Shown one piece after another: positions 1,942 through 53,606 of a DNA stretch of 64,000 bases. The translations under genes and the position numbers were made by a program. The first letter of the stretch is position 1. Each line of letters begins with the position of its first letter. This DNA is from Mytilus trossulus (Eukaryota): NCBI RefSeq assembly GCF_036588685.1, contig NC_086375.1, positions 22,506,001-22,570,000 on the forward strand. Direction: 5' to 3'. The notes under the pieces were generated by a model that was not told where the DNA came from, did no database searches, and saw nothing but the letters and a program-made list of their open reading frames with translations.

Positions 1942-4900
1942 TTAGATTTCTGTGCATGTTGACTGTTTGTCGGTAGTCGATTCTTTGATATCGTGTGTTT
2001 TACTTGATGAATCCATTCCGTCATGTTTCCTACGAACAATAATGATAAATACTATGCCATTGAGTACACCTCCTAAATTTGAGAACGTTGTCACGAAATG
2101 AAACAAAATTTGTGGAACATCCGTTTCCCACTGCCAAATACCATACGTTGCCATGGCCCACCACTGTACTAGGAAAGCGGTAACGAATAGAGACATGGTT
2201 TTCGCAGCTCTGTGCGATGCTTCCAAACTTTTATGTGGGTTTTTGATGGCCTTTACTTCTTTATAGATACGAAACCAGCTAATGACGTAAAGAATTATAT
2301 TGGTCATTGTTATGACGGAAAGAAAAATGGTTGTAAATATAAAGTTGGCTACATGTCCATTGACACCATCGAAGAAACAACTGAAAAGAAAAAAGTGAAT
2401 ATTATTTAAAGGTTGAAATAATTGAGAAAACATATTATATACATTGTAAGGAGTCCGCGATGATCTATTCCTTGCAGTAGGGAAAACATTTTGAATTCGG
2501 CTGTTGACTGCTCTATAATCGGGTTGTTGTCGCTTTGACACATTCCCCATTTCCTTTCTCAATGTAATGAAAGAATATTTTTATTTTCTGAATGATTTAA
2601 TTATACCTTGAATGGTGTTGCAAAATCCCCCAGTGCCTTTTTAATCCATAAGGGAGTCTGCAGAAGGAATGTGTTAATTGTAAATTTTGATTCTATATTT
2701 TATTTAGCTAAACTAGACGTGGTGCCCCAATATTCTCTGTCATAGTTTAGTTATTAAATGCACTTGTCATTGCATGTTTGTTTTAATTATTTGAAATATC
2801 AAATATGGGTGTTTTTAATTCTTTTGATCTCGAACATAATTAATAGTGTTACATTAAAAGCCTCTATGCACTTTTTCTATTTCAAACAATTTCGTATTTA
2901 AAAGAGGGGCGAAAGATATCTGACAACGCCATGGCTAACAAAGAAAAATACAAACAAACAGATAATGGTACCATCGTACGTCTTTTTGAGTTTTTTTGTT
3001 CATGTTGTTACATTTGTTTGTTTTTAAAGTGATTAAGATGACAACACAATGCTGACTGCTGTAGCCCTATTTTTGACATTTTACCTATTCTGTCTAGTTG
3101 TTTAGTTCACGCATCGTTGTCAATATAAAGGAATTTGATGCGACTGTCATACAAGTGAGAGGTTTAGCTAGCTACATAACAAAATGCTAGATAATATATG
3201 GCTTCGTTTCGTATCTTTAGTCTTGACGCCATCTAAGTAACTATTGAGTTAACCTCCGAAGAGCTCCGATGGTCATATAAGCAATATAAACATACATAGA
3301 GATATAAATAGAAACCCAACTCGTGTAATTGAATTTTCAAGGTCTGTTTAATTCCATATTATAGATTACAAATAAATATTTATCATCGTTTTCACCTGTA
3401 CAAAAATTATTTTTGTGGATTGAATTAGTCTATCAAATGATTTACCTTTGTTTCAATTTCAATGTTTACATTCTTTATCTTTAAATGCACACTTCATGGG
3501 CTATCCATCTCTAGTTAAGAGGTGTAATAGAAGTTCACATAAATACGGACTCAATGCGACCGAATTATTCACTTTCTTCATCATAAATGTTTTTTCGATT
3601 AATTTGACAAAATTGAACCATACTGGCTGCTTAAGGCAAATTATTATTGAACAAAAAAAATCATACTTTTTATACATTTCGTAGCTAGTGCCCCTTTAAA
3701 ATGTTGATGATATTTTGAAACATCACAAATCTCAAAATTTTAGCAGACAAACTCTCTAACAATATATTGTTTGCATGTATAAATCATTATTTGAAATTTC
3801 TTACAAAGGAAATCGGATTTCATAGCAAAATCCAACATACATCCTAATATCAGTCACAAAATATGAGATTTTAGAAAATGAAAAAACCCTTCCTCATATC
3901 TTTTTGTTTAAACACCATAAATGACGATGAACTTCTTCCTTCTTTATGTCGGTTACCAGAATTTCATAACAAGAAAAATAAAACATTCAGAAGAACGACA
4001 TATATAAGAATTGTCGGAAAAAAAGGCTTAACAATTTTTTTTCAATTCTGATGATCACCTTTTCTTCTGTAATAGATATCCGCGATAAATATTGTGATGA
4101 GGTATACTCAACCAAGAGACTTGAATCTTAAAATACCTAAATAGTTATTTGATCTGGGAATTGGATGATTGTGTTATATTCACTAACGGTAAATTTGGAC
4201 TGTATTTGCATACAATTTTTTGGTGCATGCATTGACAAGGCAGATGCTTTCCTTTTCAACCCATCCGATCTTGTTCGCTCAATATTTTGTATATATTGAA
4301 ATAGAACACCGAGATTTAAAAATTGGTAAACATGGCATATAAATCACGTTTTAAAAGCAAAATGTTAGCAGTCTGAATGGTCAAAAGCTTTGTTAAGATC
4401 GAATCAGTCAAATTAGACAAAAAATAAATTAAAGCGACAGTAGTTTAACGATTTTTGTTTTTATCTCGGTTATCGATTAAGAAAGACATAGCAAAGTACA
4501 AATAAAAAATAACGGAATCGCATGACCACGAAAAGACAGGAACACAGTGCGTCGACGATAAGTTATTCTTCTTTATGTTTTTACTTACAAGCTTCCATTA
4601 GGACCTAGCTGTCCTAATCCAGCTGCTACTGTTAGTCCTAATGCAGGAGCCCCAAAAATGAATACAAGAAGACGATAATCCCTGCATCCAAAGTCAAGTT
4701 TCTTCCGAAAATAGACTAAAACAAAAACATTAATTGCAACGATGCTGACTAATAAATTCTGAGCTGTGACAAATTCTGCCAGCAAAAATCCATAGAATGC
4801 ACAAAGATATTTTGGTGTTGGTAGTTCCTTTGTAAGAACTATATGCAAATGGTCAGAAAAATGTGAAATATTAAAAAGACCATCACATATTGCCATATAA

Positions 4901-5136
4901 ACAGCAAATCTTTCGCATATTGTCCAATGAAAGAATGTTGATATGTGCTGATGATAAAATGAATAGCTTATAACGGATATAACGCATATCAAGCTTAAGC
5001 ATATACAAATCAGTGCTGGTACATGGATGCTGTAAAAAGTACCATTATCTAGTCCATATACAGGTAAATCATAACCATCCTTTAGCTCTTTTGTTTCTGT
5101 GGTTACAGCAATGGTGGCACTAAATGAAACATTCAT
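1942..5136 (-). CDS. Orphan 7-TM GPCR, cAMP-receptor-like family, paralog 1; exons 5136-4589 and 2380-1942 (328 aa)
   Basis: GT donor at 4588 and AG acceptor at 2382-2381 join GPNGS-F-CFFDG in frame. Seven hydrophobic helices, TM3 and ECL2 cysteines, TM7 GGVLNGIVF, and no DRY or NPxxY. Confidence 0.88.
3185..3699. mobile_element. Partial copy of the TTAA-flanked non-autonomous DNA element (same family as 38759-39399), in the paralog 1 intron
   Basis: Colinear similarity to 38890-39399; ends GTAGCTAGTGCCCCT-TTAA. Confidence 0.7.
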
Positions 5137-6287
5137 TATAGTTGTTTTCTAACTTCTACCTAAATATATTTAAAAAACTTCATCTACTAACGAACTTTTG
5201 AAATTACTTTGTTTAACTTACCGATATATTCATATTGTTCCTGCTTTTTTTTATTAATGCTATGTAAATGTTTTTGTTAGATTTTTACTATTGTCATGGT
5301 TTTCCTCAAGGATTTGTGTTTTTATTATAAATGCTTTTGATTTAAATCTTTTGTTTGTGTTATTTAAAACATCATAACTTATGTAATAAGCGGGAAATTA
5401 TTTGTAAACGAGAAGACATTACGAAATGTGATCCAAAGCATTGCATGTGATCTTTTAATACATCTTAAAGACAATCAATTTTCAAATAAGGAAATTTTAC
5501 TTAAGGATGAAAATAGGTGAAATTGAAAATTGATACGACAAGTCAGAAGAGAAAAAGTTCAGGAACAAAAAAGCTAAACAAATTAATTGGTGATGGATTT
5601 TTTTTCAAAAGGTTTTGCATAAAACAAATGGTGGAAAAAGGCTTATTCGGACTCTTATATTTGCGATGGTATACTTTGGATTCCAAATCGACAGAAAATT
5701 TATCCAGAATCAGTTTCAATTTTGATAAATCACCTTTTATGAGCTATTCAACTGTTATATGAAAAAGAAAAATTGATGTTATTCGGTAAAATATTTACCC
5801 TGTTTTGTTAGGGAAAAACCAAGGAGTCCGAACATTTAAAAATGCCTCAAATAAAGAAACCGTAGCATACCGTAGTTTTTTTATGCAATTTATTGTTTTT
5901 GTTGGTTTTTTTCTACTTCTTATAGTTGATGTGTTTCCCTCGGTCTTAGTTTGTAACCCGGATGTGATTTCTCTATATTGTCTATAACTATTGATCATCG
6001 GTATACTACTGCTGCCTTTAGTTAGTAATATCCATTAATACATCCCCTTATTGCGTTATTGTGCAATGCTATATGTTTGTGTCCTTGCCATTTTTTTTTT
6101 ATTTTGCTGATGTGCTTCGTCTATATGACTTTTTTTTTTTCGTTGTTGATATATGAATTTGGTTTTATGGTAATTTCGTTTATAACACATTCCTATTTTT
6201 GACATTTCTACCTATAATGTCTGTTAATTTGTTTTAGTCACACATTGTTGTATTTATACAAACTTCAAAGGTGTTTGTATCCTGCTA

Positions 6288-6440
6288 TCTCATATTGTAT
6301 TTTCTTGTGGTCTCATATTGTATTTTCTTGTAGTGTTCTATTGTATTTTCTTGTAGACTCTTATTATATATTTCTTGTGGTCTCATATGGAAATATTATT
6401 TCTTGTAGTCTCATATGGAAATATTATTTCTGTAGTTTCA
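6288..6440. repeat. Minisatellite, ~23-28-bp unit (TCTCATATTGTATTTTCTTGTGG), about 6 degenerate copies
   Basis: Direct tandem repetition visible in the sequence. Confidence 0.8.
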
Positions 6441-6723
6441 GTAGGAGGTTGTGTAATCTTTTGTTTGTGTAATCTTTGTTTGTGCAACTGTTGAGGGATC
6501 CTGATATAGCAAATCTCAATAAAGTCAGCATGGCAATATGATAAGTAGCCCACATAAATGAGCAAAAAAGACCAAATAACTGCTCCAAAACAAACTACAA
6601 CCAAGGCAAATATGAGGGGTTTCTATGTGTAAACCAAAACATAGTCTCAGCAAATCATACTTGCTTAAAGCAGAAAGACAGTTAGAATAATAATAATATT
6701 TATTAAAAAGTCATTTAATTTTT

Positions 6724-6956
6724 GGCCCTTGAGAAACACTCAGCATACAAACGCAATTTTGAGTTCCTGCCTGAGCAAGTCAGCTTGCAACCTTCAGTGT
6801 AAGGAAGAACCTGCCTGCCCGACAATGCGCCAGCCGGGGAATGTGAAGCGAGCGTTCTCCACTTAGGTGATGAGACTAGGCGTCTCATCGGCAGCCAGGT
6901 AGTGCAAGGGTCTGACTTGGGGATAGCCCATGTACTCGTGAAGTAGCTGGGGTCTA
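6724..6956 (+). ncRNA. Unidentified highly structured RNA-like element
   Basis: GC-rich island with nested helices 6776-83/6912-19, 6784-89/6903-08, 6809-19/6890-6900, 6836-43/6853-60, 6869-76/6882-89 and 6724-29/6949-54. G-U wobbles favour the + strand. Confidence 0.5.
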
Positions 6957-7886
6957 TCAAACTGGCACTGGAATAAATTTGATAAAATTTGTCCCCGAAA
7001 TGCTTTGGGATGAATGAAATTTTAGAAATGACCAGTGTTAAAATTATATTAAGGAAAACTGAAATAAAGAAAAAATATATCACTAGTTTAAGCTGAGTTG
7101 TTTCTCTAGTCATGAAACATTATTGAAGGTGTTATAGGAAGGGGGAGGTGGGATGTAAATTGAATAATAGCACTGTAAAACTCCATCAACTAGTCAGACT
7201 GCTATGAACCAAGAAACTGATTATACAAAGACCATGCAATTGGCTTCACACACAGATTGGGTACATCTAACATCCAGGGGAGGAGACTGACCTACTGACC
7301 CTCAAATAATATACTATTATTGTGTAATCAGTATTGAAGAGATCTGGTATCATATTCTGCTTCCTCTCCACAGTGATTGTTTGTGACATGTATCTGATTA
7401 AGACAAGATTAGTGTGCCTCCTAGTGAGATTCCAGTTGTAACTTCAAAGTGTCAAATGTTAGACAAATTAACCTCAAGATATAACAAGTGGTCTGTGTAT
7501 GTTAATTAATTGCATCCATGATGTCAGCATCTTTATCATGAAATTAATTACTTGAAAACTGAAATGACTTTTCTGTTTGTATAAACAATACTTAAATTAC
7601 ATATAAGTAAATAAATATTCTGGAATTTTATACGACTGCCATAAAATTGTAAGGTTTAGCTGGCTATAAAACCAGGCTTAGATCAGTATTTTCTACTTTT
7701 GGGTAATGCTTCGGTAAAATATTGAATTTATAAATTGGTTTACTAATCAAAATAAAGTCCTGTAATTGTTTCCTCTCTGTAATTTAAACATGTTAATTGC
7801 ATGCTATTAATTTTAATCGTGCTAAAAAATAATATCAGGTTCAAGAAATCTGTTAATTTCTATCACTAAAATGAAATTTAATCTGA

Positions 7887-7894
7887 TATAAAAA
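7887..7894 (+). promoter_or_regulatory. Candidate TATA box of the C-type lectin gene
   Basis: TATAAAAA about 60 nt upstream of the signal-peptide exon; weak evidence in AT-rich DNA. Confidence 0.4.
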
Positions 7895-8043
7895 CACCAA
7901 CATTTATGTTAATATTGACTACCATTTTGGAAATATCCACACTGTTAGCACGAAATTTGCCTTGTACTGTTTGTTTGTACTATTTGGACTTGTTTTGGTT
8001 TATTGTCATGCTGGTATGGTAACATTTTGTTGGTTTTTTTTTT

Positions 8044-8230
8044 AATAATGCAGACTATTAAATTCATGAATATTGCGATGTGTATCTATCTTCTCCGATG
8101 ATTATCGCCAATTAACAAATATATATATATATATATATTTTATTTTTAAATAATGCACACTATTTATTCAGAAATATTGCGATTTGTATTTATCTTCTCC
8201 GATGATAATGGCACAATTAACAAATATATA
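8044..8230. repeat. Local tandem duplication (~105-bp period) in lectin intron 1
   Basis: AATAATGCA..ATATTGCGAT..TATCTTCTCCGATGAT..CAATTAACAAATATATA occurs twice. Confidence 0.75.
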
Positions 8231-9469
8231 TTTAGTTACCAATACATTTGATAAAGGATAATCACTGCCCAGTTATCTGTAACTATTGTTTATTTCAGAA
8301 CTATATGAGGTGTAAAGTCGGTATGACGTCATTGTTTCGTGTTTTTACATAACAGATGTCGTTAAGAATTTTTAATAAAATGAATGAGAAAAACTTGGTG
8401 TAATTGGACAAGTGGAAAAATATAATAGAAATAATTGGAGTCGCCAAGTATTTTACGAGTGATTTTATTTATAACTGATTTGTAAAATACATAAGACATA
8501 TGTTGGAAAATAATGGCGAACAAATGAAATATATGGGGGAAAACTCTCTAATATGAATAAAATGGGAGTGAATCATATAACAAATAGTTTGCCAAAAAAT
8601 AGTAATCAGTATTATAAATAGATTCTTCTTGTCTCATGGCAAAATATAGACTATAGCTATATATATTGATGTAGCATGTATCAACCCATATCGTTTTTTT
8701 TCACCTCCGGCTTGTACGTGTATCCTTTCAACAATCAATATTTAAACTTCTGCATCCAGAGTATATCTAGGTAAAACGTTTTTATTTTTTTATTTTTACA
8801 GATGATTGCAGTTATCCATACCGACGAGTTGGTAAAGGATGTTATCTTATACAAAAAGATAAAATATCCGGTGATGCTGCGTTTGTAAGTTATTTATAGA
8901 AATCGTCATATGTATATACTCATCAAATCAATGCATAGGGTCGACATAGTCACATCGAAAAGTTGATGAAAATTATTTGCTTATCAACGAGGTGGAGCAT
9001 ATTATAACTATCTTTTAAGTGGTCGTTGATCACATGTGCTCATTAAATTTACTGGTTTTTATTCAGTAACCGTGGTAACAGTGTGTATTTACCTTATAAG
9101 AACTCTTTCGAAAAAATCAAAATGGGGTGATTCTAATATCAACTCCTGAGTGATCGGGTATGACTAAACAATGAACCAATAGCTATAAAAAATGTGAAAA
9201 CATCATTAGAAACAATTAGATAGATAGTCAAAGAACGTCCACATAAAAATTATGTTACGCTAACACTTTGTTTGTCCATATCAAGTCACAAGTTATGCTG
9301 TCTTGACCAATTGTTTCGTTTGTCGATACTTTTGATTGTATGTTTTTGTATAAGAGCAGACGGAGTTTGGTGTTTGATGAGGTATAGTGGTCGATTCTTG
9401 TTTTCCCATTTTTATGTATTATTTTAATACAACTGTCAATCTAATTACAAGAATGTTCACGACTATGGA

Positions 9470-18059: not shown

Positions 18060-18752
18060 ATTAATACATGGCCTTTTCCATATCAGCCTGGGTATCATCC
18101 CGAGACCCCCATATCAGCCCGAGACGGAGTCGAGGCGCTGATATGGGTCGAGGGATGATACCCACGCTGATATGGAAAAGGCCATGTATTAATCGCTTTA
18201 TCATATACTTCCGACAATAGTTTTATGTAAGGCAAATAAACAAATGCAACAACTTCAACAGTCAAAAACTTTATAAAAAAGTTACGTTAGTAATCAAATA
18301 TACTATTTATAATTGTCCACCAACAGCATCACTACCTCCATATACATATGTATGGTAACATTTCCTTTAGAGGCATTTTGAAACATTGAAAATTTGGAAG
18401 AGTTTTATGATCATTATTACTCCAGGTTTGTTGTACTATGAAATGATTCATAATTGCAAATTGCATTTGTTAGCAAGTACTTAGCTATCCCAACAAAAGT
18501 TCACGTAAATTTTGACGTCGTCATAAAAAGTATCTGACGTCACAATGGAAAAGTAAACAACCGATACCGGAAACACCGGAAGTAACCTGCACGAGAAGCA
18601 CTGTTATGGGTTTTTGCACGAGATGCCCCTGATATGGGTTATCAGACCGGGCTGATATGGGTTATCAGCCTGGGTGGGAAATTATGGCTTGTGAACTTCC
18701 GTTCGTTACACATATGCAAAAGCTATCATATTAATGCTAAGTATATGATAAA
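18060..18752. mobile_element. Non-autonomous DNA element with a ~134-bp terminal hairpin plus inverted repeats
   Basis: Near-perfect palindrome at 18060-18193. Inverted repeat TTTATCATATACTT (18197-18210) / AAGTATATGATAAA (18739-18752). Internal GCTGATATGGG subrepeats. Confidence 0.75.
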
Positions 18753-18760
18753 ATACAATA

Positions 18761-20704
18761 ATGAATACAAGTAGTCTTGCAGAAAAAAAAACTACTTATG
18801 AAAACATAATACAGATAAAGGATGGTTATGATTTACCTGTATATGGAATCACCGAAGGTACTTTCTATACACTTCACGTGCCAGCAATGGCATGTATTTG
18901 TATCAGCTTTATATGCGCAATGTCAGTTATTTTATATTCATTCTATCGACAAAATTACTCTAAATTTTTCGATTGGTCAAAAAGTGAAAGATTTGTGGTA
19001 TATATGTCTCTTTGTGACGCTCTATTTAATGTGTCACATTTTAGTGACCATCTTCATATTGTTGTAACAAAGTCGTTTCCAACACCAAAAGGACTATGTG
19101 CTTTTTATGGATTTATGCTTGCTGAATTCATAACAGCTCAAAATTTGATGGTCAATATCGTTGCTATCAATGTGTTTGTCTTAATCTATTTTCGAAAACA
19201 GATGTTTTTTGGCAGATGGGATTATCGGCTGTTGGTTTATATTTTTGGTGTTCCTGCAATAGGTTGCATAACTGCTGGAGCTTTGGACCAGTTTGGTCCA
19301 AATGGAGCATTGTAAGTAAATAACATTATACATTGATTAGATAACTTGATTTTAAGTCGAATTATTGACAAAGTTATTGATAACTAAGTAACTAATCATT
19401 TCAATCCGGTTGACTTTTTCCTGAAATTTACAATCAAATTGAGAATGCGCGTCAATAAAACACCTGTAGCAAAGCAAATCAATACCAATGATTTAATTTC
19501 AAGTTTTTAATGGAGTGTTTAATTGATTGAATATTTTCTTATTTTTCCTACCTTTTTAGTCGGCGAATTCAAATATTGACTCTTTTAAAGGCAAATTATG
19601 ATTTTTGAAAAATACAAACTTAATTTTTGACATTAAAGGATGTACATGTACATCTCTGAGGAGCTGCAATTTTCTAGAATCAAACTTTGTTATACATTAA
19701 CCTGATGTTTGGTTTATATGACTGTTAAAAAAACAATGGGCGAAAAAAATATCGATGTTACACTTTTGTTTTGCTACGGCCCTCCGATATCTTCCGCCAC
19801 ATTTTTCTAACATTACTTAATTTTTTTTACATACTGTACGTTTGCCAATGCCAAATACTCGTTTTGGCTGCTGTAGCAGTTTTGTGTTAAAGTCGACTTT
19901 TTTTGCTAACACACACAGTGGATGAATATTTTCGTTAATAAAATAGTCAGATTTAATATTTCCATATATCCCTTTTCCGGTTATACATCAAAGGCAGTTT
20001 AAAGTATTTTTATGAAATAAAATAAATAAATCCAATGATTTGCACAACGTCAGCAATGAACACCATCATCCGTCCATAAGCTAGTCCTTACTGTAAAATG
20101 TTGGTTTAGATAAAAATAAGTTTCATGAATTACTAATTATACATAACATACATGTACATGTTATCCTTATTATACTGTAAAATTGAAATAAAATTACTTA
20201 TGTTTCTTTTTCAGCTGCACTTTTGATGCTATAAAAGGGAAAACTACATACATATTCTTCACAACGGTACCGCTTCTGTTAATCTTAGCTATAAATATCG
20301 GTTTGTACACTTTAAGCTGGGGACGAATTTATCGAGAGACGCGTGAAATTAAAGATTCTCTCGGTAAATCATCACGAGCATTACAAGCATCGCACAAGGC
20401 TGCAAAGACTATGTCTCTTTTTGTAACAGCTTTTTTTATACAATGGTGGGCTTTGGCTGTATTTGGGGTATGCCAGTTGAGCGGAAATGTTCCGCCACTG
20501 TTACTTAATTTGGTGACAACTTTCTCAAATATTGGAGGTCTGCTGAATGGAATTGTTTTCATATTTATTGTAAAAAGAAAAAGAGAGAAGGCCAGTGATA
20601 ATGGTTCGCACAAGTCAGGATCTGTAGGAACTGGTAGTACACCGATCCAATCAATAAGTCATTCAACACGTGCATCACCTGCGATACAAAATAGTGAAGT
20701 CTGA
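18761..20704 (+). CDS. Orphan 7-TM GPCR paralog 2; exons 18761-19311 and 20215-20704 (346 aa)
   Basis: GT at 19312 and AG at 20213-14 join GPNGA-F-CTFDA in frame; same seven-helix pattern as the other paralogs. Confidence 0.88.
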
Positions 20705-23350: not shown

Positions 23351-24987
23351 TTACACTTGATTACTTAATTGTTGCATTATGACTGCTTGCTGTTTTGCCA
23401 ATTCTTTGATGTCCGGCTTCTTTTTAATAGAGTCAAGATCAACTCGTTTCCTTCTCACAATGATAATGAACACTATTCCATTAAGTATGCCACCAATATT
23501 TGAAAAAGTTGTAACGAAATTGAACAAAAGTTGAGGGACATCCGTAACCCACTGCCAAATACCATACATCGCCATTGCCCACCACTGTACAAGGAATGCA
23601 GTAACGAACAGCGACATGGTTTTGGCAGCTCTATGCGATGCTTCCAAAGATTTGTACGATTTGCCAAGAGTTTTTTTAATTGCTTGTGTTTCTTTATAGA
23701 TACGTACCAAGCTCATGACGTAAAGAATTATATTACTTATCAAAATAAAACAAAGTAATATTGTTGTAAAGATGAAGTTGGCTATCTGTCCAGTTACACC
23801 ATCAAAGTAGCAGCTGAAATTTGAATAGTACGTTAACATTATTAAAAAAAAATATGCCGCAGTAGTTATTTTGTTTTAATCTGTCAAACAATCGTGATGC
23901 CACCGTTAAATATATGTAATGTCGATTTAAGTTCTTCCATTTCGTAACTGTATTTGAATTAAACTCTTTGTAGAAAAATACCACTTCGTGAAATAAAGTC
24001 TGTGTAACGTGAACATGTTCGAGAGTAACATATTCACTGAGATATGTAAACACCATACGATGGAGCAGAAAGTATCATATTGCTGAGAAATGATTAATTG
24101 ACTTTAACATATTGATGGGAGTTGCATCCGACTGCCTGTGCGATTTAAAAATGTGCATCTTTGTCCGTTTCGATTTATGAGTTCATTATGCAATATCTAA
24201 TTAAGAGGTCAGTAACTGCAATGTTTCTGCCCATATCAAACATTTTGTTTCTAGTGAAAAATTACATTATTTATTTCGGTAGGGTAGCTATTGATTTTTT
24301 CATTTTTATATTTTCTCCTTCTGAATATGTTTGAAACATTTTGCGCTTGAAAGATAAGCAAACAACAAATATTAAACAAATTAAGCTTTTAGAATAATCA
24401 ATTGCGTTTACCCTGATAGTTTGTATGTATACTTACAAGCTTCCATTTGGACCAAGCTGTCCTAAAGCAGCAACCACTGTCAGTCCCAATGCAGGAAGTA
24501 AGAAAATCACACAAAGAAGTCGGTAATCTCTTAACCCAAAGTTAATTTTTTTCCGAAAAAAAATCAATACAAAAACATTAATTGCAACGTTACTGACCAA
24601 TAAGTTTTGAGCTGTTATAAACTCCGCCAACAAAAATCCATAGAAAGCACACAACACTTTTGGTGTTGGTAGACTCTTTGTAAGAACGATATGCAAATGG
24701 TCAGCAAAATGAGAAATATTAAAAAGACCATCGCATATTGCCATATAAACAGCAAATCTTTCACATCTTGTCCACTGAAAAAAGGTAGATATGTGTTGAT
24801 TGTAAAATGAGTAGCTAATGACCGATACAGCGCTGATCAAACTTAAAAATATGCAAACTAGTGCTGGCACGTGAATGTTATAAAACGAACCATTATCTAG
24901 TCCATATACAGGTAAATCATAACCATCATTCAATTCCTTTGAAGTTGAAATTACACAATTCACCACGCTACAAGAAATGTTCGTCAT
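23351..24987 (-). CDS. Orphan 7-TM GPCR paralog 3; exons 24987-24437 and 23813-23351 (337 aa)
   Basis: GT at 24436 and AG at 23815-14 join GPNGS-F-CYFDG; closest to paralog 1. Confidence 0.88.
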
Positions 24988-26169
24988 ATTTGTTCCTTTT
25001 CAAATTTCAAACATTGATTTCGTTATCAGGAACAATCTTTATCAGTTCATACTCAAATATAGATATATATTTGTGTCTAATTTATGGCACTGTCAATATG
25101 ATTCAGGTAGGATGAAGTACTTCCTTGTTTGTATATTTGTTATCTATTATGGGATTGTTCTTTCGTTCGGTATCACGCTATATAATATTGTCATTTTGAC
25201 GTCAATCTCACCGTTGTAAGTTCCGTTCTTGTCAAAGAAAGATATTCAAAAGCCGTATGTAGTTATATGGTCGGAATGACCTTTCAGAATCGTCATCTCG
25301 TTAATCTAATATGGTTTAAATTTTTCATTCAAAAGCCGAAGGTATTTGTCGTTGGACTAATCAAAAAGCTAAATATGTCTGTTATGACATATCCACAAAG
25401 CATTTTTCCATCTGTCTTAATGATAATCGCTCTTTTAGATCTGGCTATACCCTCTAAATTCAAATGTGTTTTTTACTTGATGATACAGGCGCGTATATGT
25501 ACCTTGTTTTCTTCTTTTTAGAATTCATAATTTAGTTTATTCACATTGAATATGGTGCAACCTCTCGTTTGATTAATACAGTGTCTGTAAGGAAATGTCA
25601 TCTAAAAGACCACTTATTGTACATCTTCTAAAATTGATACTTCTTTTCCTGAAAAAAAATATTACTCTGCTTTAGTTATATTTACCTAACGTTTGAAAAA
25701 AGGACTTTTCAACACGTGTTATGATTTTTTTTTACAGTATAATTAATTTCGAAGCATAATATTTTTTCTCCACATTCTATTATATCCAGGCAGTAAATCA
25801 TTATTAAATCACGATAAAAGTTATTTAATTTTGGTATCATATTGAAAAATATTGCGCCTAAGGACAAAATAGACCAGGTCAGAACTGAAATATCGTAGAC
25901 ATAATTCAGAATGATTATATATATGGTTTTCTTAAAGCTGTCATTTCAACATTATTTTTATATAAAACTCTAAACCTGTCAATATAAAACCAAATAAGAT
26001 AATAGCTATAATTAGGCATTTGTAATAAAATCAGTAGTTTATAATAAGCTTTAAGATAATGTATCCGTACGGAGCTCTTGAAAAATTGCAATTCATTGTT
26101 GTGTAATTCCGTTCTAACTAAAGCCTGTATTCCTCATACAGTTTCGGCTATTGTATATTGTCTTGGTCA

Positions 26170-34547: not shown

Positions 34548-35970
34548 TCAAACAGCACTTTGTGTATTTGTCGAGTGAACCTTAGAATTGATATGTGAAC
34601 TAGTCGTACCGCCGGATCCTGCTTTATCGCTTGATCCTTTCTCTTCTGATTTCTCTCTTTTCCTTCGTATTATAGTTATAAACACAATTCCATTTAGAAG
34701 ACCTCCAATGTTTGAAAATGTTGTGGTAAGATTTACCATAATTGCTGGTACGCTTCCTATCAGTTGCAATAAGCCATAAACAGCAAGAGCCCACCATTGG
34801 ACAAAGAATGCAGTCACAAACAACGACATTGTTTTTGCAGCTTTATGTGATGCTCGTATAGCTCTTGATGATTTTCCAAGCGAGCTTTTGATTTCACGTG
34901 TTTCTGTATATATTCGAAACCAACTGACTATATACATGACTGTATTACTCACTAATATGAGTAGTAAAGGTACTGTCGTGAAGAAAATATATGTCATTTG
35001 TCCTTTAACTGCGTCGATGTAACAACTAGAACAAAAATAAACCTTGTTAATGATATTTAATTAAAAAATCAAACAAAACAGCTTAATGAACTAATGTCAC
35101 TAGTGTTAAAAATTTGATCGATTTTCCTATAATGGAACATAGCAACCTCATTGCAATTATTTTCTTATTTTATATCCTAAACATAGTCAGTTCATACTAA
35201 ATATACCAGATATAAAGCCATACCTGAATATAAGTAAACCCGATTCAATAAACTGAATGTTTGAGTTACTTTTAAATACTTTATTTTAATAAGAGCTCAC
35301 GATCTTAGATTCATAAAGGAATATTTACAATTTCATTTAACGAATGTTAAATTGTGTGGTTATCATTTGATATACTAGTTTGAAGTTTTTGAAAAAAAAA
35401 TAACACTTACAATGCTCCACTCGGACAAAATTTTCCTAGCGTAGCTGCAATCGTTGCTCCTACTGCAGGAACACCGAAAACATATACCAAAAGTCGATAA
35501 TCCCATCGACCGAAGTCTATCTGTTTTCGAAAATATATTAATACAAACACATTTATTGCAACAATATTGACCATTAAGTTTTGAGCTGTTACAAATTCTG
35601 CTAATATGAATCCGTAGAATGCACATAGAGATTTCGGCATTGGGAAAGATTTTGTAACAACAATGTGTGTGTGATCACAAAAATGTGAAATGTTAAACAA
35701 AGCATCACATAGAGCCATGTACACAACAAATCTTTCACTTTTAGTCCATTGGAAGAACGTAGAACAGTTTTGGTGATAAAAAGAATACCCAATCACTGCT
35801 ACTGCACATATGAAACTGATACATATACATGCTATAGCTGGGATATGAACTATGTAAAAAGTATCGTCACTTATTCCATAAACAGGTAAATCGTAACCGT
35901 CAACAAGGCGAACCTCTTGTCTGTATAGTATTGTAATATTACTATTGTAAGTTGTACTGACATATGACAT
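34548..35970 (-). CDS. Orphan 7-TM GPCR paralog 4; exons 35970-35411 and 35025-34548 (345 aa)
   Basis: GT at 35410 and AG at 35027-26 join CPSGA-F-CYIDA; closest to paralog 2. Confidence 0.88.
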
Positions 35971-38758
35971 ATTTGATACATATGTTTTTCTAAAACTTTA
36001 CAGTAAGTTATCCTATATATACTGCAAACACGCACACACCATCATGGAAATTTTAGAACGTAGTTGATAAAAACCACCCTGACCGATTTTACAATGACAT
36101 TGACATTTATAGTACGTGCTTAAATACTGGACATTAACTATTCTAATAAACTTGGTACATGGAATACTTCCTAACAAACATAATTTCATAAGTATATAGG
36201 CTTAGGTTTGTTTCCCTCGTAGTCATATACAATAGTAAATAACTGCGTGATTTAAGTACATACTCGTATGCAATTTTGCTATGACAGTACAATTTCCCGA
36301 ATACCGTATATGGTAACGACAACATGTGTTGGGTTTTTTTTTTTTTTTTTTAATTGTTGTGGTACCGTGAAAGGTATAACCATACTTATTTCTGGAAACC
36401 AGGTTGCTTTTTTATGTACCTTACTCAAGTCAATATAGTAAATCACTATGAATGGATGAAAAAAAAAATGGAATTTGTTTTTGATTTACATTTATTCATG
36501 TGTGTCACAGGTCGTTGAGCTCTGATGGTCTTCTAATTACATATATTCCTGAATATTATAGAATATTTTTCAGTGTATGTTGACTAACTGTGCTTGTTTG
36601 ATAACTGTTAAAATGATACATTATGCCTATCGCCCAGAAATAATACCGTTCCTTATGTCATCAGTGCTAGACTTAAGTATCAAGTGTTGAACAAAAGTCA
36701 TTGCATTACTGTTATAAGTCCAACAAATTAATCATCTAACTTGAAAGGAATACCAAAATGTGAAAAAAAAAATCAACAACGGCTTTGAAGGTGAAAATTT
36801 GATAAACAAAAACTTGAATACCATGAATATCAAAAAAGTTTAAAAAATTAAAAAAAGATTCTCTTTTAGGAATGTACAAAACCAGTTCTGAAAAAATATT
36901 GACGAATTTGCTTTTTCAAATTATGTACATTATTAATATGTTTTTTTCCTTCAACGTAAAGTAACGTTTATTTCCTTAAAAAATATTTTTGGCAGAAAAT
37001 GTAACTTGTAGATCAACAAAAAAATCTTCAAGATAGTGAATTTTCTACAAATGAATGACAACCGTATCCTTCCTTTCTGTCATAGCCAAGGTCATCACGT
37101 TGTTAATACTTTTCTTTTTAAAGACCGATTTCTTAAATTTTTAAATAATAAAAAGCTCAGATTGCATGAATACACGTTTGTTCGATTGAAAATCAAATAC
37201 AGATAATATAAAACAAACAAAAACGAGTATCGCCAGCTTACTAGGTTTTGTCGAAATTCTTCTTATAGACTGAAGATAATTATATTCAAAAATGTTTAAC
37301 AAAAAACTACCACACTACTTTTATTTAAAAAGGTGAAGTAGATAAAAACAAACAAAATTAAGTTTTATAATACGTGCGAACGAGTGAAAAACATTAATTT
37401 TCCAAGGTATGATTTTGATTGCTGACACGTGTCCATCGTTAACGTTTTGATGGTTAACAATGTCTGTGCGCTTGCGTCTTTAACCTTAATGTTTAATTTC
37501 ATCAAACATTGTCAGAATTTGCTACTTTGTTTACCCTTTCTGATTTTATTGCACTTACTAACAAGAAAAGCAACTATATGTAATGAATTAAGCAATTGTT
37601 TACATGTCAATATTCAATTTGAACATCATTCAGATTTCACATCTGGTTTTAGTGGAGTTCGTGTTGTTTCTTATTTATTATTTATAACTGTTGATGTAAA
37701 GGTCCTTTGGTTTTTTTAGTCTTTGTTTACTCCTTGGTTTGGATTGTTATTGTCTTGATAAAAAGTATAGAGGCCTGTTACTGTGTATTACATATATAGA
37801 GATGAAACTAAGTATGTCTATACAAATCTAATTCCATTCAGAAAAAAATACAAAGATCTATAATTTTCAGAACCTTATACTTTTACGGATTTAAAAAAAT
37901 ATATAATCAAAGTAGGGAATCCCTCCTGTTCTCTAATCTCTTGTTTATTCACCTTCAACTGATCCTGCTGCCAATTTAAGATATTATTCTCGTTTATGTC
38001 CTACGGTAGTTTACCACCTTCTTAATAAATATTGGTAAATAGAAAAAAAACAATATTTATTTACCAAAAAAACAGGATTTTTAAGGTTTTTTTATCTATA
38101 TTTTTTTATATTCAGTTCCAATATTATGAACTTATTACAAAAACACGCGTTGTACATATCATTTTTTTTGGTAAAAAGATTTAAAACGGATTATCAAAAA
38201 TGAAGGAAAAGTAGTTTTAGTGGATCAAAACGTTAAAATGGGGTTAACGGTTGTAAACTGAAATAAATTAAAAGTTTATGACTTTCTCTTTTAGTAAAGA
38301 ATTCCTTATCTATTCGGCAATAATGAAAGATTCACTGTTTATACTTTTTATGAAATCTGTATATTCATTCATATTGTAATTTTTAAAGTTGAAGGTTCTT
38401 TGTGGAGATAATATTCTCCTAATTTAACCTTATCAAAAACTAAGTCTTTATTAATATCTATATTAATCATAATTATGTCAACAAGGGGTTATACAGTCAA
38501 TATAAATGTCCAACTTGATGGAATGTATCCAGATTTAAAGGACAAGAAAAATCCTTAAATAACTCAAAAGATGAAAGTTTGAATCAAAAGTGTATGATTT
38601 TAAGATATCTACTAAACGGTGTCATTAGAGGTATACCTACCTGCAGATGTACATACATTTTTTTTTTTACATTTATGAATAAAATTGTTTATAGGGCTTA
38701 TTACAATGATTCCCCTTTTTCTTTATCTCTATATGATTTACAGCAATAGTTTTATATA

Positions 38759-41109: not shown

Positions 41110-41722
41110 TAAAAGAGGGACGAAAGACACCAAAAAACAGTCAAACTCGTAAATCTAAAACAAACTGACAACGCCATGGCTAAAAATGAAAAAGACAAAC
41201 AGAAAAACAATAGTACACATGACACAACATAGAAAACTAAAGAATAAACAACACGAACCCCACCAAAAACTAGGGGTGATTTCAGGTGCTCCGGAAGGGT
41301 AAGCAGATCCTGCTCCACATGCGGCACCCGTCGTGTTGCTTATGTGATTACAAATCCGGTAAATATTCTAATTCGGTAGGTCAAATTCATGAAAGGGAAG
41401 GGGATTGTAGTTACGACGTAAGGAACATATCCGATATCATTTGTGAAACGGTTATTCCATAACGGTCAACCAACTCGTGATGGCGTCCGTAAAATTTACG
41501 AAGGGATGATTTCAACTTCACCATTTGGAACTCTTGGTTTAATAGCTTCCTTGTGAGCAGTAACCCTCTATCAAGAAAATCATGATAGGAAATGCAAGCA
41601 CGGGAATATCGTATCAATTGGGAGATATATACTCCGTATGCAGGTGCTGCTGGAATGTTGCTACTTAGAAATGGAAAGTTCACAATTGGAAAGCTGAAAT
41701 CATCTCTTTTGTCGTAAAGTGA
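41110..41722 (-). mobile_element. 5'-truncated Penelope-like retroelement (RT thumb plus 3' UTR)
   Basis: LYDKRDDFSFPIVNFPFLSSNIPAAPAYGVYISQLIRYSRAC..KFYGRH*. The ORF ends after the thumb with no C-terminal GIY-YIG, as in permuted-domain PLE clades. Confidence 0.85.
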
Positions 41723-42266
41723 GTTATTGTGCCTTATTACAGAATAAGACATAAATGTATTAGATTGTTATACGATTTTATCAACAAATAAAAACCATAA
41801 TACAATCTTTTTAATATTTTTTGAAGTGAAACTAGTTTATATTCGTGACCAACTCGCGGAAGTGTGAACTGTATACCAATGTCATCGGTTATTGTGGTTT
41901 ATAGCTTTATAAGTCAGTGACTGTATTAAACATAATTTTATAACGCATTTGATATCCTTGATAGAGGATAAGTGCTTATATATATGATATACAATCACCA
42001 TTTTTTTTTTATGAAAACCCTCGTGACGAATCTGACCTTGAAGGGAAACCTGTATTTAACTTGATGAGTTTGTTTTTCGTTGTCTTTAGATTTAGTCATT
42101 TGCGGTTTGTTTTTATTCTTTTTTATGATTTTCCATGGATTTATTAATCCTTCTTTGAATTTATACTTTTGAAAGCTCTTGTAAACTGAGTTTTGAATTC
42201 GATATAAGCTGACATTTACATAAGGGCAACTCGACGGGGGTACATGCTTGAAAGGATATAAACACT

Positions 42267-42735: not shown

Positions 42736-44250
42736 TTAAACAACATTTGCAAAATGACTGTTGGAATGTACGGTTGAGTGGATAGGTGTAGATGCGGTAT
42801 GTCCAGATCCCACCTTGTCGTCGGAGGCTTTAGTACTTGATTCTACCTTCTCGCGTTTTCTGCGCATTATGATGATAAACACTATTCCATTCAAAATACC
42901 ACCTACGTTGGAAAATGTTGTCACAAAATTGAATAAAAGAAATGGAACATCAGCAACCAACTGCCAAATACCATATAACGCCATTGCCCACCATTGAACG
43001 AAGAATGCTGCGACAAATAATGACATTGTTTTTGCAGCTTTATGTGAAGCTCTTAAAACTCTAGAGGACTTTCCGAGTGAATCTTTAATTTCTTTGGCTT
43101 CTTTATAGATCCTTAACCAACTTAAAATGTAAAGAATCGTGTTTATGACAACAACCATCAAAAGAGGTACTGTTGTGAAGAAAACACCCGTCCATTTTCC
43201 TTTAATTCCATCAAAATAACAGCTAAAAAGAAAAAAACAACTTCAGAAATTTTCAATATATATTTTAACAAACGAACTCATTGAATTGTGTAGGCCAATC
43301 TACGGAATGCGAACAGAAACATTCCTGATTAGTGTTTGCGAACAGATTAATTAATAAATTGGTATCAGTATTGTAACATTACAAACAGAACACTTTTTAT
43401 CTGATCGCAAAGTACGCGAATCAACCATTTTATTGTTTTGCGTACAACAATTAACCAGTTTTGGTATCACATTTTCTGTTCATCGAATGAAAACGTATAC
43501 ATGTATTTCATTGATATTAATCATGTTCTTAAAAGAATGAAATTGTGTTATAATTTCAATTTTTAACGTTATTCATATTAAAACAGAAATCAAATATTTT
43601 TCTATGGTTTTTTTTCTTCATAAAAGCGATTGAAACACAACAAAAGCATAAGCGTGACTGATATGGTAATATGAAGAAAATACATACAATGATCCATTAG
43701 GTCCAAGTTGTCCAAGGGAACCTGCAATGAGTCCACCTAAAGCTGGAGCACCGAAGATGTAGACCAACAGTCGGTAGTCGCATTTTCCGAAATTTAAGTG
43801 CTTACGGTAGAATACTAAAATGAATACATTAATGGCGACAATATTCACCATCAAATTTTGTGCTGTTATGAACTCAGCCAGCATAAATCCATAAAATGCA
43901 CAAAGCGATTTTGGTCTTGGTAATGTTTTTGTAACAGCAATGTGCATATGGTCGGTAAAATGCGCAGCGTTAAAAAGGGCGTCACATAGTGCCATGTATA
44001 CTACAAATCTCTCGCTTTTTGTCCACTGGAAAAAAGTTGAAAAATGTTGATGATAGAAAGAATATCCTATTATTGTTAATGCGCATATAAAACTTAAGCA
44101 AATACATATCAGCGCTGGCACGTGAATGTTATAAAATGTTCCCTCTTTAATTCCATACACGGGTATATCATAACCATCAACTAATGTTTTAACCCCTCCA
44201 AAAGAAGTTGTTGTAGAATTCGCAGCTAAAAGGGTCGTCATGTTGGACAT
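42736..44250 (-). CDS. Orphan 7-TM GPCR paralog 5; exons 44250-43688 and 43222-42736 (349 aa)
   Basis: GT at 43687 and AG at 43224-23 join GPNGS-F-CYFDG. Confidence 0.88.
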
Positions 44251-45009
44251 TTTTTAACTTAACTGTTCCTTTCACACTTCAAATGAATATTAAAGTCGCA
44301 AAAAAACAAATATCCGGCAAAAGGAAGCTTAAACTCTCATCCTTTGATTAGTTTACATCCTTGTAAATATCGATACTATCTGTGATTGAATTGTCACAAC
44401 AACTTCAAGTAGGTCTAACATTGATAGGACAAATATATACGTTTTATTTTGTTTTTAATAATTTTATTTCCTGAAAAAAAATAAATGAATAAAAAAATCG
44501 ATACGACCCAATCGTGAAAATCCTATTTTGAATAACAACCGGTTGTACATTGAACATCTGTTTTTTATATGTTTTATGTTCAAAATTCTTAAATCTATTT
44601 CGAATCGCCTGAAAATTGTGCACAACTTACTTTAAAAAATACTTCAAATGCATTGTACAAAAACTGTATAACCCGTTAACAACCTTTGATTAGTTATTCT
44701 TTTTATTACATTGGGAAATGGCTTTTTTTTTAAATTAATGTAAAACATGTAAAGAACTATATTTTTCATACGCATTCACAATTTTTTTTTTGATCCGCCG
44801 TTATGGACGTCCTGACAACGCCTATTGTTGTATGACGTCAGAGAGTGAAATAACGACGTTTATTTCAAATGTGAAATTATTGGTCTTTATTTAACTGTGA
44901 AATCAATGTTATTCATTGCAACCAATGTAATAAACACAAATATAAGATTTTCATCATCAGGTATACTAATAAAACAAATCTTAAAGTGACTATAGCACGA
45001 TTAAAAAAG

Positions 45010-45562
45010 CTATGACGTTAATCTGCATATATTGGACATTGCAATATAACATTTTTTTTTTCATTTTCAATGGCATGACTATTAACACAACCATTTGTCT
45101 AAACATATATTCTCCTATCTTCCCGTTTCTGTTCTAATAAGTGCAACACCACACCGAAATTTAGACATAGCACTACTGTATTTACCAGGCATATTTTTAA
45201 TCAAATAATTCCCAACACCATATACATATTTGAATTCTCTGTAAGTTCTTAATTTACTTGTATCATTAGACATTAATTTTATTAACCACTCTTGCTTAAA
45301 ATGTTCAAATAATACATTTACGATAACTGTTATAGTATTCTTACTTAGAATATAATTAGTATTACATAAATTATTCATACCAAGACTAAGAAATTTGGCA
45401 TATACTCTAAATTGCCATTTTTTTATTCTACCCTTTCGGAAAGAATTACTCACTCCATAAAAAAAAACTTTTGTATTCAACCTCTCATCGCACATTTTTG
45501 TTAATCGTGACCAGTTTCTAAATACACAAGACCATTGCTTTATACTACAAGGCATCAAGCCC
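45010..45562 (-). mobile_element. Non-LTR retrotransposon ORF2 C-terminal remnant (RTE-X/L2-group-like)
   Basis: SKLRTYREFKY..YL..SKFRCGVALIRTETGR followed by a decayed Cys/His knuckle (RIC..IENE..LQCP). The clade is not certain. Confidence 0.7.
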
Positions 45563-45886
45563 ATATTGGATATGTTCCTTTCGGCGTAACTACAATTCCC
45601 TTCCCTTTCATGAATGTGACCTACCGAATTTACCGGATTTTTTTTATCACATAAGCAACCCGACGGGTGCAACATGTGGAGCAGGATCTGCTTACCATTC
45701 CGGAGCACCTGAGATCACCCCTAGTTTTTAGTGGGGTTCATGTTGATTATTCTTTAGTTTTCTATGTTGAGTCATGTGTACAATTGTTTGTCTGTTTGTC
45801 TTTTTAATTTTTAGTCATAGCGTTGTCAGTTTATTTTCGCTTTATGAGTTGGACTGTCCCTGTAGTATCTTTCGTCCCTCTTTTTT
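45563..45886 (+). mobile_element. Penelope-like element 3' UTR fragment abutting the LINE remnant
   Basis: Matches the reverse complement of 41110-41435. Confidence 0.8.
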
Positions 45887-50985: not shown

Positions 50986-51311
50986 CATTCCCCTTGACTA
51001 TGTATTTCGCTTCCAAATTTTTGAATCAAGAGCATTTCAGATGATAAGGTTAAGAATCTCGCATAGTGCTGCTTATCAATATTAGAACTAATATTTAGAC
51101 TCCTGAACATGTGAACCAGTTTCAAGATTACTTCAATATACTTTTAACGGGAAAACAATTTGCTTTAGCTACTGCTTCCGTTGGCATGAAGGTTTACATT
51201 GATTGGCAAATATTTGTATGTATATATGTCGGCATGGAAACCTAGATAATGTCCTACATATTGTTCCTTATACTGTTGCACAGTTATATTTCTTCTTTAT
51301 TAAGATACACA

Positions 51312-53606
51312 ATGGGTAAAGATGGATACAGTTTGGATTTGGCCGGTTTGGACAATGGCCAGTTCTATGTTATACATGTCCCAGCATTAACATGTATATT
51401 TTTGAGTTTTATATCAGCTATTTGTGTAATAGTAGTATCATTCAAGAAAAAGAGCTACAAAACATTTTTCTCATGGTCAAGAAGCGAAAGATTCGTAGTA
51501 TATATGGCGATTTGCGACTGTCTGTTTAACGTTGCCCATACAATGGATCATATGCATATTGCTATTACAAAGGATCACCCGCATCCAAAAGGGATCTGTA
51601 TTTTTTACGGGTTTATGCTTGCCGTGTTTATAACAGCACAAACTTTAATGGTCAATATCGTAGCCATCAACGCCTTTATGTTGATCTTTTTTCGCAAGCA
51701 GATTAATTTTGGAAAAAATGACTGGAGACTATTGACATACATATTTGTAGCCCCTGCAATTGGAGGAATTATCGGGATAGCTCTTGATCAGATGGGACCA
51801 AATGGCTCTTTGTAAGTTCAACTTCAGATAGTATTTAAAATATAGTCTGACATACATAATATGAACATGCTAATACAGTAGTTTAACCCAAAACAAATAT
51901 AACGTATAAGCCAAGTTTATCTTTAAATTTTAATCAGAAAAGCAATTTAAAAAAAAAAGATTTGAGAATAAAGTTTTACCAATTTTGCCAACTTTCAAAT
52001 TATAAATGAACGTTTTTGTATCTTTAGTAAGAAAAAGGAAACATAATCTATTCCGGGTAGACTTTACACGTTTTTGCACTATTTTCGTTTCCATATTTAT
52101 TCAAATGTTGCGAGTTAATGGTTGTACCCATTCATACTGAAAACTAATTTAGAAATGAATTCGGTAAAGGTAAGTTACAAAACTTTAAAATGATTATACT
52201 ACTTGTAGTATCTTTTCATATTTAAAAATGTAACTAACTAAAATCGGAAGTTGTTTATAAAATAAAGATACACAATTGTTTGGTTGTTTGACAAAATATG
52301 AGGTGTGTCTTCGCATCCGTCATTTAAAATTTATGTTTTGGCGACGAAAGAAAAAAATCGTCATTTCACTGTTTTGAAGACGTAAAATGATTTCCTTAAC
52401 ATTAGCATGAGCCATGTTCAAATTTTTATGGTTTTTAATTCGTTTTTTTTTATTGTAAGCAAGATGTATTTTACAAGTACAGTGAATGAAGGATAAAAAA
52501 AATAATACATCTCAGTTTGGAACAAAAGTTTTCAAATGATAACACGTTACATGACAATGGTGGTCTCGAGGTAAATAGCATGACTCCTTGTATTGAAAAT
52601 GATTCATTTAAAGAGGCTAAATACCAAGTGTATAACACAACACACATACTTAATAAAATATCTTATCTACCTGAAGTTTGGTCTTACTATTGAATATTTA
52701 TGAATTACATCAGTTATGGTTTGTCCTTTATTTTAAGTTATATATTTTAGACAAGACATGCTTAAAAATGAATCTAACTACTAAAAGTCAGATGTATCTT
52801 GGTTCGCTTAATTGTTGCTGTTTATGATTGTAGCTAAATCACAAATTTAATACCATTGAAATTGATGTAGAATTGTCATATTGAATAGAAATAGGTTTAA
52901 TGTTAAATATAAAAAAGAAGATGTGGAATGATTGCCAATGACACAACTCTCCGCAGGATACCAAATGACACAGAAAGAATGTATATTGATCTGAAAACTG
53001 TCTCGTGTTCTTGCTGTATCACTACATCGTATAATTTAATCTCATGTATGCTCTCTAATTGATACACGTGTGACCTTATAGACGATACCAAAAGATCTTG
53101 AATATACATAAAAGGGTCATGCTATAATTTGAAAGATAAAACATTTTTGTTAACTTTATGTTTTGTTTTTTATTTTTATTTCATCTAGCTGCTATTTTGA
53201 TGGTGTAAATGGAAAGCAAATGGGTGTGTTCTTTACAACTGTTCCATTGCTGGCAGTACTGTTCCTTAACAGTGTGTTCTACGGGCTGACTTATTTTCGT
53301 ATTCACCAAGAAGGTAAACGTCTTAAAGATACAGTTGGCGAAAATGCAGCGTCTGTAAAAGGGGCTCATAAAGCGGCCAAAACCATGTCGCTGTTCGTAA
53401 CAGCTTTCTTCATTCAATGGTGGGCAATGGCAATATATGGAGCATGGCAATTGGTCGAGGATGTTCCACAGTTGCTATTCCAGGCAGTCACAACCTTTTC
53501 TAATCTTGGTGGTGTTCTAAATGGAATTGTCTTCATTATCATTAAGAAGAGACAGAACACAACAGAACAAGAATCCAAATCGGTGACGCAAACAACGAAA
53601 GCCTGA
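51312..53606 (+). CDS. Orphan 7-TM GPCR paralog 6 (most divergent); exons 51312-51811 and 53189-53606 (305 aa, start uncertain)
   Basis: GT at 51812 and AG at 53187-88 join GPNGS-F-CYFDG. Homology begins at MGKDGY; an upstream in-frame ATG at 51249 or an extra 5' exon is possible. Confidence 0.85.

Follow-up and report, generated by a model that had tools for sequence, protein, structure and literature searches.

A GC-rich island in mussel DNA appears to be part of a conserved pairing domain in the B repeat of a Ngaro-type retrotransposon

What is the GC-rich island found at positions 6724-6956 of the 64,000-nucleotide stretch of Mytilus trossulus DNA that we analysed (the window)? A first-pass annotation had described it as an isolated island folding into a long nested rod, and had proposed either a novel non-coding RNA or a functional RNA carried by a transposon. 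The island itself is real, as its 500-nt bin has the highest GC content of the window (0.418), and every helix listed in that description was found in the sequence at the position given. It is not isolated: at least 41 matches at 90-100% identity, a lower bound, were found in the 1.3 Gb of genome searched for copies, and a 19-nt word from the island has 46 exact genome matches versus none for a reversed control. Comparison of the copies indicates that the island, read on the minus strand, is part of a B repeat belonging to a retrotransposon of the Ngaro (tyrosine-recombinase) type. The transposon-borne half of the proposal is supported; the novel non-coding RNA is not.

Homology to other copies spans exactly 6251-7613 (Table 1). 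Longer copies have the layout A1-body-B1-A2-spacer-B2 on the minus strand, and A-spacer-B alone, ending at the recombinase junction, was found in the window and in seven more of the 34 loci mapped. The flanks of the window unit, when joined, match two other places in the window across the join. They thus make up a repeat of which the window has two more copies, so the unit's insertion site is clean. This copy is most likely inert. Split direct repeats of the form A1-ORFs-B1-A2-B2, with internal repeats downstream of the tyrosine recombinase, were present in L037 and L034, both of the window's family, and in ten other elements. Pairs of 1.34-kb repeats, for which Penelope pLTR, TRIM and Helitron readings were considered, proved to be B1-A2-spacer-B2; a retrozyme or Penelope pLTR reading was likewise rejected, as there was no hammerhead and the pairs of 1.6 units are B1-A2-spacer-B2 of a longer element.

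Table 1. Features of the Ngaro-type unit in the window
Feature	Position	Strand	Basis
Solo A-spacer-B unit of a non-coding Ngaro subfamily, inside an older dispersed repeat	6251..7613	-	Copy homology, joined flanks
A repeat (5' split direct repeat)	7156..7613	-	Comparison with longer copies
Spacer (S) between A2 and B2	7055..7155	-	Comparison with longer copies
C-rich tract opening the spacer (G-runs in the cDNA), marker of A's 3' limit	7137..7155	-	12/12 elements
a2, spacer strand complementary to a'	7092..7106	-	Pairing tests, fold
B repeat (3' split direct repeat)	6251..7054	-	Copy comparison
P1', C-run pairing with the module UUGGGG behind the recombinase gene in full-length copies	7004..7012	-	
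Family-specific GC-rich hairpin insert, most of the earlier island	6746..6960	-	
8-bp hairpin kept in all aligned copies	6869..6889		
a', 3' strand of the long-range helix	6731..6744	-	
b' (GGGCCAAAA), with the conserved GCCA motif; site of breakpoints in rearranged copies	6720..6728	-	
Possible poly(A) signal AATAAA, lying 16 nt beyond b'	6699..6704	-	Sequence
Half site at the B end, GTATAAA on the element strand, likely recombinase site	6253..6259		
Inverted half site some 30 nt into A, likely a site for the recombinase	7579..7585		

Other arrangements of these parts were also observed. L044 and L050 are A1-body-B1 copies that have no spacer and no second repeats, the counterpart of the solo unit, and in the older copies L045 and L046 homology stops 37-40 nt upstream of B1, where the pairing strand a described below has its 5' edge. 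Tandem A-spacer-B runs lie behind full elements of other Ngaro families (L080, L087) and at G000:C8:38954798-38958771, with four copies 1318 bp apart in one case. Tandem 3.6-kb units, each with a broken recombinase gene, occur in L062, G000:C9:17324902-17333087 and C12:32249515-32257529.

A sister subfamily, 92% identical to the window in the island and 84% in A, is coding, with frames in the order gag-like, reverse transcriptase (RT)/RNase H and tyrosine recombinase; the RT of this subfamily shares 98% identity with a protein named Mytilus edulis. A coding copy matches RVT_1 (E 3e-7) and Phage_integrase (E 1.3e-4, below the curated cut-off) and has no integrase, and the conserved recombinase motifs are present in the recombinase alignment. 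No methylase family matches the coding copy. In the intact L052 and L082, ORF2 (535-540 aa) ends about 30 aa past the RNase H motif, which leaves no room for a methyltransferase; according to the accessible part of PMC4157794, absence of this domain sets Ngaro apart from PAT-like elements. By layout and domains, rather than by an RT tree, the element can be classed as Ngaro on the features given in the available text of PMC4157794 and PMC9210276. The window's own subfamily is non-coding and 5.6 kb long. Its 3-kb body cannot be aligned with the coding body, and all that the two subfamilies have in common is the repeats and the module that follows the recombinase gene.

The proposed rod did not withstand comparison between copies. 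The span 6724-6956 folds no better than shuffled sequences (z -1.16 on the plus and -1.72 on the minus strand; -0.48 and -1.70 for the majority copy). The outer rod helix, CAAGUCAG/CUGACUUG, is private, being perfect only in the window's own copy among the ten aligned; the letters that form it (6915, 6918) differ in all four public runs compared, as do 6853 and 6948, and all four letters tidy the plus-strand fold. In the three coding-subfamily copies aligned, both the ACCUG/CAGGU helix and the end of the CUUGCA/UGCAAG helix are broken. Only the 8-bp hairpin GAUGAGAC/GUCUCAUC (6869-6889) among the listed helices holds in all ten copies, seven of them perfectly, and a hairpin that resembles it in other letters was seen by eye in two related families. 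The G-U pairs taken to mark the plus strand do exist in two helices, but they do not fix the strand, because the minus strand shows a G-U register of its own in those helices. What had been read as an Sm site is the reverse complement of a conserved GGCCAAAA motif on the element strand.

An Rfam covariance-model scan of the whole window gave no real match (nothing in 5000-9000, two chance matches elsewhere), and none of snRNA, snoRNA, SRP, RNase P/MRP, 7SK or the small ribozymes was matched in 11 related loci. No hammerhead was matched by covariance model in the window or the related loci, and likenesses to U3 boxes, RNase P/MRP, telomerase RNA and hammerheads were dropped because no model matched. 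ARAGORN found no tRNA genes in eight loci, where only the word GCCA resembles a tRNA end; for want of a tRNA cloverleaf in these loci, a tRNA-derived SINE or tRNA-like primer was rejected.

Which part of the island is then conserved? We searched the mussel genome for the recombinase, took 40 of 119 matches and used 16 representatives with a clear module (including L039). Behind the recombinase stop these have, in a common order, UUGGGG and strand a, a small hairpin, UUGG(C/A)C (b) and the C-run P1', followed by a family-specific GC-rich insert, then a' with GCCA(A) (b') after it, and an AT-rich stretch in which AAUAAA is frequent. In the window, P1' carries one private change, at 7006. On this evidence the earlier island corresponds to the hairpin insert, a' and b' of a conserved domain on the element strand. 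Strand, limits and fold had all been misjudged: the conserved pairings are on the minus strand, form no nested rod and cover 6720-7106, beyond 6724-6956.

Strand a pairs preferentially with the B repeat of its own element. Across the 16 representatives the cognate energy is -24.4 kcal/mol compared with -20.7 for non-cognate pairs (permutation p ~1e-5, a value too small because the families are related), and in 12 of the 16 the best partner that a finds in 650 nt of its element's B is better than those in shuffled B (at most 3 of 100 shuffles). GCCA lies at the end of the duplex in nine of the 16, where 0.9 would be expected, and the cognate a ranks first in only five. For two families with long modules (L074, L082) the a window was misplaced; both were kept in these counts. 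The second B repeat is not preceded by the module, and there the unrelated spacer supplies its own complement of a', the strand a2. In 11 of 12 elements the best partner of the spacer in B is a', with letters that differ from family to family, and the control sequence behind A1 pairs more weakly than the spacer in 11 of 12. On the window's minus strand, a2:a' is present in both the minimum-energy and the centroid folds. Thus a' has two separate partners, a strand just behind the recombinase gene and an unrelated spacer strand, and a' and its partners appear to change sequence together across families and hosts.

The paired molecule is probably RNA of the minus strand, an assignment favoured by an excess of G-U over A-C columns on the element strand (39 and 9 by a neutral aligner, against 29.5:18.5 expected). 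The p value of 0.003 is too small, owing to relatedness and to the selection of the 25 elements (14 own-genome, 11 outside) for a clear duplex. The inserts are hairpin clusters, often of tandem units, that share no sequence; our guess is that they could bind a protein (Gag or RT) or serve as a packaging signal. Over 11 families the island z-scores give no strand preference (sense better in six, antisense in four, about level in one).

The same domain was found in other hosts. An alignment scan yielded 80 metagenome loci and five from a genome collection, of which we examined the 55 that hold the end of the recombinase gene together with some DNA downstream. UUGGGG lies within 300 nt of the recombinase stop in 30 of the 54 loci that were long enough; the gene itself contains it in one of 54, and shuffling gives 3.3. 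From 32 loci with UUGGGG and enough sequence, we removed three of own-genome families and six near-duplicates. Among the remaining 23, 13 have a best duplex that ends next to GCCA (2.1 expected, the motif having been set beforehand), and the mean energy for a is -24.1 for cognate versus -21.1 for non-cognate pairs; the cognate ranks first in three, and the test did not find the 3' module in ten. A single-protein scan of metagenome contigs and an alignment scan of viral contigs gave no matches. In L160 and L226 the P1 helix reads GGUG/CACC for GGGG/CCCC, a compensatory change seen by eye. Ngaro-like recombinase genes also lie on contigs of genomes titled as prokaryote MAGs (L223, L224, L226 and L227, with direct repeats in L226); they are likely DNA of animal hosts in MAG bins.

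The limits of the repeats coincide with conserved signals. The C-rich tract opens the spacer in all 12 elements (C 0.55-0.70, versus 0.05-0.20 behind A1), and at the junction of B and A we saw, by eye, ATAAA in 12 of 12 and GTATAAA in nine of 12, facing an inverted copy in A; these inverted half sites are likely the recombinase site. B1 starts within -10 to +6 nt of the UGG that pairs best with b' in eight of 13 elements, and by eye at or just past (U)GG in five of six metagenome or genome loci with repeats, one of the six (L145) belonging to an own-genome family. B begins 4 nt past the U of UGG in the window's family and on UGG itself in others; the UGG of B2 is lost in some families and kept in others. 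The family-specific gain of b:b' is small (cognate -10.3 versus -9.4, p 0.017), and this helix has a short, nearly invariant core rather than a covarying one, with a mismatch in several families.

Rearranged copies break near the same place. In the window's family, five of 13 breakpoints inside B fall by eye at B319-337, that is, in a'/b' (two in L048, one each in L049, L100 and L101); the binomial value of 8e-6 applies to an interval picked after the fact and to loci chosen for holding the island. In a second family, with 30 loci that overlap in part, no breakpoint falls in a'/b', and one lies 27 nt past it. L049 and L101 run from A-spacer-B up to a'/b' and then directly into internal sequence-module-B1, an arrangement that resembles a circle opened close to the recombinase site, and L100 is a fold-back. 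L048 has a LINE-like RT fragment at 622-1762, in a tail-to-tail junction with a Ngaro piece whose end is at b'.

What might the domain do? We tentatively propose that the GCCA end of the element RNA primes reverse transcription on that same RNA. The full-length RNA would be A1-ORFs-module-B1-A2-S-B2, and its last copy would fold a2:a', leaving GCCA free. The RNA would then be cut or trimmed to end in GCCA-OH, like a tRNA end; a cut has to be assumed, because AATAAA lies downstream of GCCA and the primary transcript should run past it. GCCA-OH would anneal to UGG(C/A)C at the border of module and B1, where the element's RT could extend it. If RNase H removes the template upstream of UGG, a second pass over B1 would run off and jump to B2, and this removal would explain why B begins at UGG. 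The C-tract, as G-runs on the cDNA, might halt second-strand synthesis and thereby fix where A ends on its 3' side. Our wider proposal, in which animal Ngaro elements self-prime and a GCCA end mimicking a tRNA, the UGG site and the G-run stop of the spacer together define both repeats, we hold to be less likely still. Complementarity of a:a' and a2:a', the start of B at UGG and the breakpoints at a'/b' count for self-priming; the small cognate advantage of b:b' and the loss of the B2 UGG in some families count against it, as does the equal fit of the breakpoints to the opposite polarity. An internal G-rich primer for the C-tract found no consistent site, the best duplexes (-14 to -22 of about -45) being scattered. 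No primer is known for DIRS-1 from the available text of PMC7192593, and self-priming of Tf1 after cleavage is a precedent for cutting and annealing (PMC4600332, in the part consulted).

The domain might alternatively be a splint like DIRS-1's internal complementary region (ICR), its pairings holding the B1 border by B2 for a template switch or circle closure, with priming by other means. We consider this unlikely, with some points in its favour: the B boundary at UGG and the breaks at a'/b' are compatible with a template switch at a helix, L049 and L101 join b' directly to internal sequence, and the ICR is needed after first-strand synthesis (PMC7192593, accessible part). However, the ICR pairs with both termini, whereas a, a2 and b pair with an internal part of B, and the G-U excess indicates the RNA strand, not cDNA. 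Less likely again is a role in 3' end formation, stability or packaging, in which the poly(A) signal would be hidden or shown (read-through in B1, stop in B2), the hairpins would bind Gag and no priming would occur. AATAAA follows GCCA in seven of the 13 outside loci that have GCCA, and the hairpin-cluster inserts reach z < -3 on at least one strand in seven of 11 families, as such a role would have it; yet the helix can form in the B1 and B2 contexts alike and so could not discriminate between them, and the start of B at UGG is left unexplained.

Priming with the opposite polarity, in which RNA cut just 3' of UGG at the B1 border primes on b' and cDNA starts at b', seems improbable to us. L049 and L101 do look like circles whose cDNA began at a'/b', and B of the window's family starts 4 nt past the U of UGG; in other families, however, B starts on UGG itself, and with the template cut in two, one more jump would be required, over 4-5 nt of homology. 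An independent non-coding RNA or ribozyme of the plus strand, to which plus-strand G-U pairs in two helices and the folding of a 414-nt region on both strands (z -3.22 plus, -3.36 minus, values inflated by mixed composition and not taken as proof) would lend themselves, is very improbable and already largely refuted: the island is always embedded in the B repeat, the rod is not conserved, Rfam gives no match in the window or the 11 related loci, and RNA-library contigs (assembled contigs, giving no strand, end or level) cover A, spacer, B and body alike rather than the island alone.

The element class and its solo repeats are already known, and the island is ordinary as a transposon remnant; it is also part of a conserved cis signal. 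No description of the domain was found in the accessible parts of the literature searched, which did not extend to the founding Ngaro papers and supplements. How reverse transcription starts in tyrosine-recombinase retrotransposons is an open question, as stated for DIRS-1 in the available text of PMC7192593, and the limits of split direct repeats have no explanation in the accessible parts of the papers cited here. Here every limit is linked with a conserved signal (UGG where B starts, the C-tract where A ends, inverted half sites where B meets A), and the signals predict exact nucleotides for RNA and cDNA ends. If self-priming by GCCA is true, it would give a full replication scheme for elements with split direct repeats. 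The motif also allows annotation of non-coding Ngaro derivatives and solo repeats, which otherwise resemble orphan structured RNAs.

Elsewhere the window holds six paralogs, each a two-exon gene encoding a membrane receptor-like protein, whose orientation varies (1942-5148, 18752-20704, 23351-24999, 34548-35997, 42736-44253 and 51246-53606); one piece tested gave a weak Git3-type GPCR match (E 3e-4, below the cut-off). The frames at 41411-41767 and 45115-45714 presumably resemble retroelement fragments.

The mussel element shares with Ngaro elements (order DIRS), including those of Cafeteria burkhardae, the A1-ORFs-B1-A2-B2 layout with gag, RT/RNase H and tyrosine recombinase, as well as scattered solo AB repeats; the part of the C. 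burkhardae paper available to us describes no RNA structure, spacer partner, C-tract or boundary motif (PMC8547959). The mussel Ngaro differs in having an additional 5.6-kb non-coding subfamily that shares only the repeats and module. Like the ICR of DIRS-1, its domain has complementary strands in non-coding sequence of a tyrosine-recombinase retrotransposon, behind the last gene and ahead of the 3' repeat, tied in DIRS-1 to rebuilding of the ends. Identity with the ICR was rejected, as the repeats are direct and the partners lie 300-600 nt inside B; the ICR, in the available text, is an exact complement of both termini of an inverted-repeat element and acts on cDNA, whereas the mussel helices pair inside B, have G-U pairs on the RNA strand and form twice with unrelated partners (PMC7192593). 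As in Tf1/Tj1, the element's own RNA would anneal to the primer site and need a cut; Tf1, an LTR/integrase element, uses the 5' end of its RNA, while priming here would involve the 3' region of a tyrosine-recombinase element (PMC4600332, accessible part). SIRE, the dispersed repeat of Trypanosoma cruzi VIPER, is likewise an A2, a short unique region and a B2, in another superfamily and host, and with no structure described in the excerpted text (PMC6681497).
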